The notes under the pieces: generated by a model | Told to the model about the DNA's origin: nothing | Seen by the model: only the letters and a program-made list of their open reading frames with translations | Databases searched by the model: none | DNA from: Eledone cirrhosa | Taxonomy: Eukaryota | Direction: 5' to 3' | Assembly (NCBI GenBank): GCA_964016885.1 | Contig: OZ024749.1 | Location: 41,168,001 to 41,232,000 of the forward strand | DNA: 64,000 nucleotides | Part shown: piece after piece, positions 39,001 through 48,000 of the stretch | Layout: the number at the start of each line of letters is the position of its first letter | Numbering within the stretch: position 1 is the first letter of the stretch | Position numbers and translations under genes: made by a program

Positions 39001-42000
39001 TAATTTTATGTCAGAAGTTTTTATTAAGTAATGTCCCAAACATTAGTTTACTAATGACAAATTTAAGTTAATTTACTGCACTCTTCAAAATTAATGCAAA
39101 TACTTTGGCAGTTTAATTCATTATAGATATAGTAATGACAGGATTAAAATATGAAGAAATATTATCTTTATTATTAATCTCTTATAAAGTAACTCACTAT
39201 TTGATATATCTCACTGTTCTAAATATCTTTTATTGTTTTCAAAAAGTTATACATTTATATGAAGTATTCTTTAATATGTAGTTCTGAATAATAATTGCAA
39301 TTTTTAATTCATTTTCTTCACTTTTTTCAGTTCCTCCCAGAATGATAATAATAATTTGTTATATGGTTTATGTTGTTGATACAATATTGGTTTTATATTT
39401 TTTATATGTTTGTTATAATTTAATACATTCCTTTATTTTCAGTCTTTTAACACCGGATAATAATAATTTTCACTCCAATCAACAAATATCATCATCATCA
39501 TCCTCATCACCGTTTTACGTCCGTTCTTCCACGCTAGCATGAGTTAGACGAGTTGTCCTGTTGTGGGCAGTGTCCGGTCGGCTGACCTTGTCTTGCTCAT
39601 ATGGGAACTGATTCTGGCTTGATTTCTACAGCTGGATGCCCTTCCTAACACCAACCTCATTTACAGTGAGTGCTGGGTGCTTTTTTTCCGTGGCACCTAC
39701 ACGTCCACTTTACAGTGTGGGCTGGGTGCTTTTTTGCCGTGGCACCTCCACGACCACTATATATTTCTTTGTTCTCACATGGAACAAAAGCACTTCCTAA
39801 GGTTTCAAGGCTCAATAGTGACCTAATCTTCAGATGCTTAGATGGGCATGTGTGTGTGTGTGTGTGTGATATATATAATTATGTGTATTATTATATATAT
39901 ATATATATATTATGTGTATTATTATATATATATATATATATTCTATGTGTGTGTCTCTACATGTGATATCATTAAAACACCCAAGAAGTTTCTTATGAGA
40001 TATGACTGCATAAGAGGCTAAACCTACATAGGTGTGTGTTGTGCATTTCATTTTTATTCAGCCATGTAACTGACTGGTATCCTATCCAGGAGAGTCTTGT
40101 AGTTTGAGTTAATGCCTTATGAAACTGTGGTAAGCTCTGGCCTGATGAGCCTTGGTGAGGTTCAGGGCCGACTTCAGCTTTAACTTGTATTTATACAAGA
40201 ATTTCATGTTAAGGCAATGAGGAACCTCCAAGGAATCTTTGAGCCTCTGATCGATCCCAGACATTAAAAGTAAATAGATGAATCAGTAAACAATATAAAA
40301 TAAAATAGACAATGAACCTGGGGTTGATATCAACCACGTTGGTGGGGTGGGGGGTCTGATTTACACAGTTGCTTGGCATGCTAAAAATAGCAGCCAAATC
40401 ATTTTTTTTTTTTTTTTCAAATTTCACTCTGCTGTTTTAAATATGGGTGAACTTATATGTGGCCTATAAGAATTGTATGTTATCTTCATAATAATCTCTA
40501 TTTTTAATTATCTTTAATTATTTTTCTGTTTTTAGGGAACCAAACATTTTAAAAAGCAAAAAAAAAAAAAAAATTAAGACATCTTTTGTAAAATGATCAA
40601 ATTTTGGAGTTTTTTTTTCCTGATAAAAAAAAGTTCTTTTAATATGTAGTTTATATTTTTAAATTTGAGTTTATTTTTATGCTTATTTGAAATGAAAAGA
40701 CTAATATTTTAATTTTTTGTTTATTTAAAAACAGATTTTTTAAGTGTTTCTTTCAGAGTTTGTCCTTTAAGACTCATCTCTATGGTGTATCCAGTTTAGA
40801 ATAGGTACACTGTATCCCTGTGTGTCATAAAAGGTGACTAAAAGGGTCAGTGCCCAACCGTTGCTTCAAAAGGAACCCCTATGATGAGTATAAAGTCTAT
40901 GATGGGGCCTTACAAGGCTCACAACCTTCTGCTTTAGCAGAGAGGGAAAAATGGCCTTAAAAATGCTTATGATTTTGTTTGTCCCTCAAGATTCTGTGGT
41001 TTTGTAATAACTTTAATCTACACTTCTATTATTGTTGCTGTTTATCCTTTAAGATTCACTGATGACTTTTATCTACACATCTATTCTTCTCACTGCTGTT
41101 GCTGCTGCTGTTGTTTGTATTATTTTCTCCCATGATATGTGTGTATAGACTAGTGTGGGCTGTAGATTGATTGACCAAAGTCTTTTTATTTTCATTTTCA
41201 TTTTTATTTTTACTTTTGGCTTCAAGCAACTTGTTCTTGTGCCTTGAGGAATTTTCGGAGAACTCCTTTCTTTCTTTTCTTCTTTTATTGTTAACTGCTT
41301 ACCATTATTATTTAGTGAGTCTTTTGCTAGAATTAGCATTTACCAAAAATACACCAGAAACTCTCAGTAAGAGATGTAGTAACTCAATTTGTTTGTTTGT
41401 ATGTATTTCTTTATTTGAGTTATCCGAGAAAAAGACAGCAGTTATTTGAAACGCAGAGTTGTCCGCTCATGAGTATTTCTGGTGTATTTTTACAATCAAA
41501 GGAACATTTAGTCAAATATTTATGACAAAACTGTAAAATCTTAGAAACAATCTTTGTTTTTATCTGAATATACTTTGATTAATATGCCTATTCACTGAAA
41601 CTTCTCTTAAGAACTTAGGCAGTCATCATTATCATCATTATTATTATTAAAAGAAACCATTATTATTATTATGAGGTTAGCTTTGATTTTTATCCTTACA
41701 GGGTCAATAAAATAAAGTACCAGTAATGCACTGGGGTCGATTTAATCAACTTTTCTCTCCATCCAAATTGCTGGCCTTGTGCCTAAATTAGAAATCATTG
41801 GATTGGGAGTATCGGTAGAGGGTCGGACGCCATACTTTCCAGCATAGTTACGTCCCTTTATGATCTGAGTTCAAATTCCGCCGAGGTTGACTTTGCCTTT
41901 CATCCTTACGGGGTCGATAAAATAAAGTACCAGTAATGCACTGGATGATTGCTGGCCTTGTGCCTAAAGTAGAAACAATTATTATTATTATTATTATTAT

Positions 42001-45000: not shown

Positions 45001-48000
45001 AACATGACTTAATTGTATTGTGCATGATGGAATTCATCGTTTTAGTTTTTCAGAAGCTTACCATTATTAATGTCTTCTTCCTCTCTTGTGCTTCCGTTGG
45101 ATTGGATTTCAATTAATCTACATGAATGAGGCTTGAAACTGCCACCTTTTTGCTTGACTCACCTTTCATACCTGCCTCTCTCTCTCTCTCTCTCTCTCTC
45201 TCTCTCTCTCTCATTGTCTTTCTATTGTTTTTTTTTAATTCTCAATTTCCATTTTTTTAAACTCCTAAAATTTGTTTCCAGAGATCATCATCATTGTCAT
45301 CATCATCATTGTCTATACCAGAGTTCAGCAATATCCTCTGTGGACCTTGTTTATATGTGAGATATGATATACATGTGGGCCAATGAGATATTCTCTGTGG
45401 CCCTCAAACCTTTTCCAAAATATTATATGTAAGATAAGATATATTATACATGGACAACATTTTTTTAAAAAAGAATCAAAAGTGTGTCATTACAAAAAGA
45501 AGTTTCTGTTCCTTGATCTATACCTTATTGTCACACACAATACATAATGTATGTTTATTCATCCAGTTTACAATACCTTAGCAAAAACTAAAAAAAATAT
45601 TCCTTATTAGTCTCAGTTAGTAGAGCGTTGGACACCATGCTTCGCGGCAGAGAGTTACGACCTTTTACGTTCTGAGTTCAAATCCCACTGAGGTTAGTGT
45701 TGCCTTTCATCTTTACGGGATCGATAAAATAAAGCACTAGTAATGCACTGGGGTCAATTTAATTGACTTTCCCATCCCCTTCAAATTGCTGATCCTGTGC
45801 CTAAAGTAGAAATCATCATTATTATTATTTATTAATTAATCTGACCATTTTTTTACATCTTGTATTAATTTTGAAAATATTATTTACAGTAAACCCTTGA
45901 TTTAATGGACAAATAGAGTGAAAGATGTGTATCAATGCCCAAGTATCAGTTAAATTAAAAGCAGCAAAGGTGTCATTTTATTGTTTATAATGGACCTGCA
46001 ACAGTTTAAGCAGAAAACCAACGACATCAATTTTTTCAGTCTTCGATTGTTTGTTATGGTTGTTGGCACTGCTCCTTTCTCCAGACCTACGACATTAAAA
46101 AACCCTTAATACAATGGATAATACTGCATAATATAAGCCCATTCAATTATAAGGGATGCACATGGCTTAGTGGTTAGAGCATTGGCCTTGCAATCGAAAG
46201 GTGAGTTCAATTCTCAGACCGGGTGATGTGTTGTTTCCTTGAGCAAGACACTTTATTTCACATTGATCCAGTTTACCCAGCTGTAGAAATGAGATGATAG
46301 GGACTGGGGTCCCTATTATTCCATTGCAAGGTGGTCATGGAGGTGCCACGGCAAAAAAGCACCCAGCACTCACTGTAAATGAGGTTGGTGTTAGGAAGGG
46401 CATCCAGCTGTAGAAATCAAGCCAGAATCAGTTCCCGTCCCACCCTTGCAAGCAGGGAAAAAGCGGACGTAAAATGAAATGATGATATAATTTTTTCATC
46501 ACTTTTGATAGTGTTGTTGAAAAGTATTTTATCGTGACTCTAGTAATAATTCAGTATTGTATTGTCATTCTTTGAGCCATTACATCCAGAATTTTGGCCT
46601 GCTAAATCAATGGTTTACTGTATTCTATTTTTTTCTCACCCTAAAGAAATATAACATTTACTTTCAGAATATACTTCCTTGTTCCAATGTTTCTCTCTTT
46701 GTATGTGTCACTTATAAAATGGTCAGAACTGTTCACATATCAAATATCTGTGCCTGAACTAATACTGCTCCACTAGGTGTTGCTGCTCTCTTCTTTGTTT
46801 CTTCATTTCCAAATATATTTTGAAAACAGTATGGTATTTTACAGGTGGTAATGAGTGAATGAGGTTGGTGTAAAAATTAGTGTTGCAAAACATTTCTTAA
46901 ACAGCCATAAGTTCCACAAAAATAGCTTTAAAGTGAACCAAAATTATATCCACCAAATGCAGAGTGAAGAGAACTAATTTGTAATTGCCAAAATATAGAG
47001 CTTTTTCTGCTCTAATGTTTAAAGGTGTTGACAAAAACATTGTATATTGTGTTCATGACTCCACCAGCAACGCATCAACAAACTATAGAGGGCTTTCAAA
47101 GTACCAGCACACAGATTCTTCTGTTACTGCCATCTGGAAAACCCAGCAACTCTTTCAAAACAGATTTGGAAATTGAGAGCCAAAGAAGAGATCACTAGTA
47201 TTTTGAAAGCAGTGTTAGATAAAGAACAAGTATTTAAGAACAGATCAAAGGGTTGTGACTAATGTGTTACAGAGAAACAGCATATCATCTGCCACTTTAA
47301 AAAATAAGAATTATTCAATTTTCACTTGTTGATAATATTCAACAAAATACACCACATAAAATGACTCTGTTGCTTTCTGATAACACACACACACACACAC
47401 ACACACACACACATATATATATATATATATATATATATACACACACACAAACTGATCTAATAATTAAAAATATTTTAGCTTCTAATTTCTGTTGTTTACT
47501 AAAAAAAAAAAAAAGGGTTATTTTTTCCAGTTTGATAAAAGAAAAAAAATTTTACCATTTTTATCTCCTTAAACTATAACCCCAAGTTGGTGTTCTCTAC
47601 AGATTTACTTTTTAATATATTGTCTCTGTGTATCTGTATATAAGTCTGTATGTCTATGTATCTGTATATGGGTCTGTGTGTATGTGTCTCTATATGAGTG
47701 TGTCTGTTTCTTTATGCCTGTGTATGAGTCTATCTGTATATGAGACTGTCTGTGTGTCTATGTATCTGTATATGAGTCTGTCTGTGTGTCTATGTATCTG
47801 TATATAAGTCTGTCTGTGTGTCTTAACACCTCCCCCTATTGGGGATTTCGAATGTTGAATTTGAATGTTAAAATTTTTTACACAATTGTATGTAAAATCC
47901 CTGCCATATGTCTTTGTATTGTCTCCTTTTCTTGTGCGCCTTTGTGGCAAATAAAGAAATATATATATCTGTCTGTGTGTGTCTGTATAAGAGTCTGTCT

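Follow-up and report, generated by a model that had tools for sequence, protein, structure and literature searches.

Introduction

The channel gene NALCN carries two tandem and mutually exclusive exons, 15a and 15b, which supply a glutamate (Glu) or a lysine (Lys), respectively, to the domain II pore (Senatore et al. 2013, PMC3557258). The pair is reported from flatworms, molluscs, annelids, echinoderms and hemichordates, with exon 15b being monophyletic, and in the pond snail the Glu (EEEE) form is higher in heart and muscle while the Lys (EKEE) form is higher in brain. The main text of that report names no octopus, squid or cephalopod and gives no mechanism for the choice between 15a and 15b. 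Here we consider the corresponding exons of the octopod Eledone cirrhosa, designated 12a (Glu) and 12b (Lys), and a near-perfect inverted repeat of short interspersed elements (SINEs) which brackets the Glu exon. They lie in a stretch of 64,000 nucleotides (nt), referred to below as the window (assembly GCA_964016885.1, contig OZ024749.1, positions 41,168,001 to 41,232,000 of the forward strand).

An earlier note, made from the sequence of the window, had proposed that the repeat acts as an RNA loop-out switch between the two exons, and its author knew of no description of such a system. Exon skipping caused by inverted SINEs has, however, been published. For TBXT, an inverted AluY/AluSx1 pair was demonstrated by deletion and insertion tests to cause skipping, and pairs at 1,448 and 4,188 bp are described (PMC10901737). 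Inverted Alu pairs are also enriched within 5 kb of skippable exons, weak acceptors being the sensitive ones (PMC13019027), and reporter deletions of such pairs shifted inclusion by about 1% to more than 40% (PMC13019944). More generally, the main targets of ADAR across animals, octopus included, are young repeats which have diverged little and are able to form long duplexes (PMC9989829), and the tRNA-derived SINEs of molluscs, of which octopus OR2 is an example, are built from exchangeable modules (PMC4758252). In a literature search extending to few subscription journals, no publication title dealt with control of the NALCN Glu/Lys exon pair by repeats.

Judged from the sequences, the SINE arms are most likely far younger than the choice between the Glu and Lys exons. 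We consider it probable that the inverted repeat represents two SINE copies in opposite orientation, inserted recently and by chance around an ancient Glu exon, and that it contributes little to steering exon choice.

The Glu/Lys Exon Pair of an Octopod NALCN Gene

Coding exons of NALCN were placed by tblastn between positions 29753 and 62696 of the window. In PDB searches the best match of both alternative exons was to NALCN residues 543-588 (E values of 1e-6 for 12a and 9e-17 for 12b) and, on these matches, both code for the segment from the pore helix of domain II to S6. Exon 12b is 100% identical to NALCN proteins of Octopus bimaculoides, and 12a shares 41 of 49 residues with an exon of that species. 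The gene is thus an octopod NALCN on the combined evidence of PDB matches, identity to O. bimaculoides and exon placement. Both exons are bordered by GT-AG sites, have lengths that are multiples of three and share the same frame, with the Glu exon lying first, and by sequence they are the published exons 15a and 15b. The pair is therefore already known, and it must be old because 15a and 15b are common to flatworms through hemichordates. The acceptor of 12a contains 16 pyrimidines in 20 positions and that of 12b contains 18, within a range of 11-18 over 11 acceptors.

Relaxed selection on 12a was suspected from an Ile at a position where Thr is invariant among the 113 motifs matched in the first protein set, and it was rejected on finding Ile in three of five cephalopod-like Glu exons as well.

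Structure of the Inverted Repeat

The coordinates of the repeat given in the earlier note all hold: the left arm matches the reverse complement of the right arm at 95 of 96 positions, and extension by BLAST yielded a match between 39603-39717 and 46322-46436 with 93.9% identity over 115 nt. The arms are situated in the two introns flanking 12a, each within about 5 kb of it, the left one 4895 nt upstream and the right one 1600 nt downstream, with an enclosed length of 6642 nt, and a further 3257 nt separate the right arm from the start of exon 12b. A second inverted pair is nested within the first (43714-43830 with 46160-46273, 75% identity). Both pairs were correctly described as enclosing 12a and not 12b, and the arms as belonging to SINE copies of opposite orientation, each of which is of high copy level.

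The head of the right SINE shows A and B box patterns, which recur in a copy at 17466, and its body carries the 96-nt arm, while outside the 96-nt tract the left and right copies have different tails. The nested pair, which the earlier note had assigned to a separate family B, does exist but it is not independent of the longer one: the stretch between the two right arms is as high-copy as the arms themselves and, therefore, family B and family C on this side represent a single SINE insertion, to which both right arms belong. No exact repeat of at least 7 nt, as expected of a target-site duplication, was found in the searched flanks of either the left or the right SINE, and Rfam gave no match within 38000-56000.

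The tail of the right SINE is 89% identical to the end of a broken open reading frame near 30400-30453. This lies within a fragment of intron 1 (30150-30460) that resembles the broken 3' part of a long interspersed element (LINE), an identification suggested by a motif and by a high-scoring, unconfirmed Atlas lead.

Copy Level and Age of the SINE Family

Four read or contig runs were aligned to positions 37950-46900 at 90% likeness. Run X1 consists of DNA contigs of the same species and X21 of restriction-site-associated DNA (RAD) reads from a separate study. Run X5 represents the closest relative that was compared, an orthologous intron piece differing by 29 letters and 3 gaps in 393 nt, or about 7-8%. 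The fourth run, X4, is not recorded as RNA and we treat it as a transcript assembly because it contains an exact splice joint.

Single-copy pieces of the region reach depths of 5.7-17 in X1, compared with 1.38 million at 39612 and 1.31 million at 39681 in the left arm and 0.37-2.9 million over the right SINE, its linker included (776,350 at 46317). Similarly, in X21 the left arm has depths of 4278-7311 as against at most 7 in unique bins, and the right element is also continuously high. The SINE family of both arms thus occurs at about 10^5 times the single-copy depth. In X5, on the other hand, depth is 0 at positions 46317 and 46324 in the linker of the right SINE subfamily. The right copy differs from the family majority at at least 4 sites in about 334 nt. 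These few differences, together with the zero linker depth in X5, are the grounds on which the right SINE subfamily is probably lineage specific and spread after the split from the X5 lineage. The caveat attached to the original proposal, that high identity may simply reflect young SINE copies, was well placed.

The local perfection of the 96-nt tract could have another origin, in that gene conversion between the copies homogenised it or selection for pairing maintained it. The edges of the tract are sharp, identity dropping outside where the tails of the copies differ, and among the remaining copies of the window identity to the tract is no more than 73-89%. Against this, the tract itself exceeds million-fold depth at 90% likeness, none of the 40 difference rows listed falls inside it, and exchange of body and tail modules is normal in mollusc SINEs (PMC4758252). 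Moreover, two copies diverging by 2, 3, 4 or 5% would show no more than one mismatch over 96 nt with a probability of 0.43, 0.22, 0.10 or 0.05, respectively, and the tract was trimmed at its best-matching edges. By these sequence comparisons, the match lies beyond the reach of chance in random sequence and yet within reach for young repeats in the window, and homogenisation appears decidedly improbable.

Table 1. Exons, SINE copies, repeat arms and motif cluster at the Glu/Lys exon pair of E. cirrhosa NALCN (positions in the window)
Feature	Position	Strand	Remarks
NALCN coding exon 11, upstream of the alternative pair	38009..38140	+	tblastn with P0006; joined to 12a in X4 contig 9
Left SINE copy, lacking a tRNA-like head, with internal tandem duplication, antisense to NALCN	39490..39758	-	Repeat comparison; X1 depth 1.0-1.5 million
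Left arm of the 95/96 inverted repeat	39603..39698	.	Sequence match
Older fragment of the arms' SINE family	42279..42335	-	83% complementary to right SINE
Further family C copy	43460..43612	-	About 80% to left copy; alternative partner of right SINE, -117.5 kcal/mol
Diverged tRNA-like SINE head (left arm of family B pair)	43714..43830	-	75% to right SINE head
Exon 12a (NALCN exon 15a), domain II pore with Glu	44594..44740	+	147 nt, GT-AG
Three ACTAAY (44829, 44936, 44998) and one TGCATG (45021) after 12a	44829..45026	+	
Right SINE, full-length: tRNA-like head, core, linker, body, LINE-like tail	46154..46487	+	Contains both right arms
Right arm of the 95/96 inverted repeat	46341..46436	.	Sequence match
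Exon 12b (NALCN exon 15b), domain II pore with Lys	49694..49828	+	135 nt, GT-AG
NALCN coding exon 13, downstream of the alternative pair	55674..55748	+	tblastn

The Exon Pair in Other Animals

A metagenome scan yielded 59 related loci, of which 4 carry both exons, 30 the Lys exon only and 25 the Glu exon only. The distance between the Glu and Lys exons is 176, 281, 486 and 683 nt in the four two-exon loci. Two of these, L004 and L005, include the full length of the introns on either side of the Glu exon, and no inverted repeat there exceeds 17 and 21 nt, respectively. In L006, where exon 11 was not reached, none of the 5 longest of 23 inverted repeats brackets the Glu exon, while L054 includes too little upstream DNA for inverted repeats to be judged. 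Since L004 and L005 retain both exons with inverted repeats of no more than 21 nt, the pair persists in other animals in the absence of a long inverted repeat.

This bears directly on the strong form of the earlier proposal, namely that the duplex is the mechanism by which 12a and 12b exclude one another. It was rightly observed that no usual mechanism of exclusivity applies, the exons lying 4953 nt apart, in frame and both with GT-AG borders, so that steric, frame-shift and U12 explanations are all inapplicable. However, a young SINE subfamily, unseen in X5, is set against an ancient exon pair, and the retention of both exons in L004 and L005, which lack the repeat, contradicts such a role. 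Furthermore, a loop around 12a could at best lower 12a and provides no way of repressing 12b; therefore it is not an exclusivity mechanism. We regard a role of the duplex in exclusivity as extremely improbable.

Some features of these loci merit separate mention. In L004, the Glu exon would be looped out by a 17-nt pairing between 5964-5980, at the start of the intron following exon 11, and 6943-6959, in the Glu-Lys intron; the pairing, which figures in 2 overlapping tests out of 35, beat all 25 shuffles and has no counterpart in L005 or the window. L054 carries a 15-nt pair, 93% complementary (295-309 with 1134-1148), situated just 3' of both alternative donors and enclosing the Lys exon, which is weak against shuffles (p about 0.08). 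In fourteen loci within the range L007-L031, exon 11 and a Lys exon share a contig on which no Glu exon was detected; loss of 15a has been published for some annelids, and these loci are consistent with it. Exons 10-13 are intronless in L007 and L009.

Transcripts and Editing

In contig 9 of X4 (681 nt, depth 4.95) position 38140 is joined exactly to 44594, with no differing letters and with 134 and 103 letters on either side of the joint. Thus the Glu exon is spliced in E. cirrhosa with both arms in place. Among relatives there are a full-length protein of the Glu form (P0124), one of the Lys form (P0006) and a model that has both exons in tandem (P0002).

A back-splice joint from 44740 to 44594, which the loop-out proposal led one to look for, is not among the 15 joints listed, these being derived from contigs, which drop rare forms and minor splice forms. 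Mismatch counts are dominated by other SINE copies and are uninformative on editing, with 38 A>G and 39 T>C in X4 as against 48 and 40 in the X1 DNA.

Chance Bracketing and a Possible Damping of the Glu Form

The window contains 14 dispersed repeat pairs of at least 90% identity over at least 80 nt, of which 5 are inverted. When positions and strands were shuffled, with the observed inverted pair included among those shuffled, 41% of trials (26% with a stricter cut) had some exon bracketed within 7 kb. Beyond position 29000 there are 21 inverted pairs with loops below 15 kb; 13 of them enclose only other coding exons, two enclose 12b and exon 13, two enclose 12a with other exons, and one encloses none.

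We would therefore favour no special role for the arrangement, and the sequence of events envisaged is as follows. Insertion of the right SINE 3' of 12a, in the orientation opposite to that of older copies on the 5' side, would have been fortuitous. Some nascent transcripts are then predicted to form a duplex between this SINE and any one of its four antisense partners on the 5' side of 12a. Such a duplex, one of many in the genome, could be edited by ADAR but would alter the Glu/Lys ratio slightly or not at all. The choice of exon would fall to splicing proteins that are tissue specific and act close to the splice sites, as in species which lack these repeats.

Several observations weigh against this view or loosen its footing. 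The 96-nt tract, at 99%, exceeds the other young pairs (90-96%), and shuffling brackets 12a itself in only 8.0% of trials (4.7% with the stricter cut), which is borderline. The three of the 21 inverted pairs that enclose 12a alone all do so through the right SINE, and the 39603/46436 pair is the most stable of the 21, at -210.8 kcal/mol compared with -144.1 kcal/mol for the next. Inverted pairs elsewhere do cause skipping over several kilobases, as for TBXT and in the reporter deletions. As to the data used, X1 may be the window's own source; summed contig depth is not copy number, so that its order alone, about 10^5-fold, is employed; and insertion of the right SINE after the X5 split is deduced from linker depth rather than from an empty site that was viewed. 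The 40 difference rows and 15 joints listed are part of longer sets, and the X4 contig derives from a single sample of unrecorded tissue, at a depth of 4.95, the compared stretch excluding 12b and thus giving no ratio.

These points bear most on a weaker alternative, that the right SINE and the antisense copies upstream act as a lineage-specific damper which would loop out 12a and shift the balance towards the Lys (EKEE) form, superimposed on the ancient regulation, with ADAR editing predicted to weaken the stem. The predicted duplex of the left and right SINEs, at -194 to -211 kcal/mol, is the strongest locally, all four upstream partners enclose 12a, and the downstream partners of the right SINE are 11-13 kb away and match at 74-79%. 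The chance of bracketing 12a is 0.05-0.08, there are precedents in TBXT (PMC10901737) and in the enrichment of inverted Alus close to skippable exons (PMC13019027), and 12a, being alternative already, would have a ready competitor in 12b. On the other hand, the loop of 6642 nt is long and the best arm of 96-115 nt is short relative to the Alu arms of about 300 nt, 1.4 kb apart, described for TBXT. Moreover, the 12a acceptor is not obviously weak, whereas the acceptors reported as sensitive are (PMC13019027), and the sole spliced contig observed uses 12a. Such damping seems to us unlikely, although deserving of consideration, and the repeats would at most be a species-specific damper of the Glu form.

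Candidate Splicing Proteins

Splicing proteins are the probable basis of the exclusivity of the two exons. Activation of an exon by QKI bound downstream of it is known, and the motifs following 12a (Table 1) are ones that we take to be candidate sites of the QKI/How and RBFOX types. A tentative proposal, compatible with the incidental origin of the repeat favoured above and naming a regulator for it, is that a QKI/How-type factor activates 12a through the ACUAAY cluster and represses 12b through a UAAC-rich branch region, which would give Glu in muscle and Lys in neurons. Among 15 exons 12a alone has three ACTAAY motifs in the 300 nt downstream (0.19 expected; Poisson p about 0.001; 3 of 1274 sliding windows). 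Up to 150 nt before 12b there are three CTAAC or TTAAC motifs, with a TAAC-rich branch region at 49621-49650, and tandem ACTAAY motifs precede the Lys exon in L006 as one does in L054. QKI is reported to repress at ACUAA branch points (PMC13004596), and the distribution of the two forms between muscle and brain of the snail (PMC3557258) agrees with the expected one. However, the motif was chosen post hoc as one of seven scanned, and two of the three ACTAAY motifs border a simple ACT repeat. In addition, ACTAAY occurs within 320 nt downstream in none of five other Glu exons, it is missing from the 200 nt preceding five of seven other Lys exons, and there is no exact ACTAAY within 200 nt before 12b in the window. 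On balance, we hold this regulator to be possible, with the weight of expectation somewhat against it.

Other Features of the Window

A stretch of about 280 nt of T-rich low complexity (44310-44590) lies directly 5' of the 12a acceptor and could harbour a distant branch point or repressor sites. The intron preceding 12b is filled by a tandem array with a 26-nt period (47900-48900) and a long TA-rich satellite (49090-49540). Downstream of 12b, at 49958-50065, there is a decayed tandem copy of the 3' end of that exon and its donor region (77% over 142 nt) in which the last G of the exon is altered and the copied donor looks weakened, and it is a possible cryptic site. Further tandem arrays occur at 422-1464 (92/96-nt units), related to copies at 29294-29472, and at 34489-34948 (23-nt units).

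Comparison with Known Systems

The exons themselves are most closely matched by NALCN 15a/15b (PMC3557258), which agree with them in gene, in the domain II pore-to-S6 segment encoded and in the tandem, presumably exclusive arrangement with Glu preceding Lys. The window pair is nevertheless spaced at 4953 nt, compared with 176-683 nt in the four other two-exon loci.

Dscam1-type clusters provide a second point of reference, sharing with the proposed switch a tie between RNA pairing and the choice among duplicated exons. The docking-site and selector pairings of those clusters are short, conserved and competing, and they lie near splice sites. The window arms, by contrast, lie kilobases from the splice sites and are not conserved, the right subfamily not being seen in X5 and no counterpart occurring in L004 or L005. 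Nor did any of 9 region pairs tested in the window for docking/selector pairings near the 12a and 12b splice sites beat shuffles.

With respect to the elements themselves, the right SINE is built like mollusc SINEs such as octopus OR2: the head is tRNA-like and carries A and B boxes, a core follows, and the tail is shared with the LINE-like fragment of intron 1. It was placed among tRNA-derived SINEs by structure, independently of repeat libraries. Relative to the young repeats surveyed across animals (PMC9989829), editing of the window arms, if present, would be expected background and not evidence of a switch.

There is also a likeness to TBXT, in that a young and probably lineage-specific SINE in the intron after the exon is opposed in orientation to older copies before it, with one exon enclosed. 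The window pair differs in the shorter arm (96-115 nt), the longer loop (6.6 kb) and the mollusc origin of the SINE, in being known here from sequence, and in that 12a is one member of an exclusive pair and not a cassette exon. By analogy, one might imagine that a recent octopod SINE loops out the Glu exon and so retunes the balance between calcium- and sodium-type leak pores, with ADAR adjusting the stem. We think this improbable; if true, it would be a TBXT-like transposon event on the selectivity filter of an ion channel, extending inverted-repeat skipping from primates to cephalopods and linking transposon spread to channel selectivity. The locus offers a natural experiment in this respect, since relatives lacking the right SINE subfamily appear to exist. 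If the arrangement is incidental, as we favour, near-perfect inverted repeats beside exons would be common background in octopod introns, and copy number should be checked first when they are encountered. The exon pair and the class of mechanism are already known and the arms are young and probably incidental; at best, the locus would be a TBXT-type pair, having the geometry of one and a predicted function.

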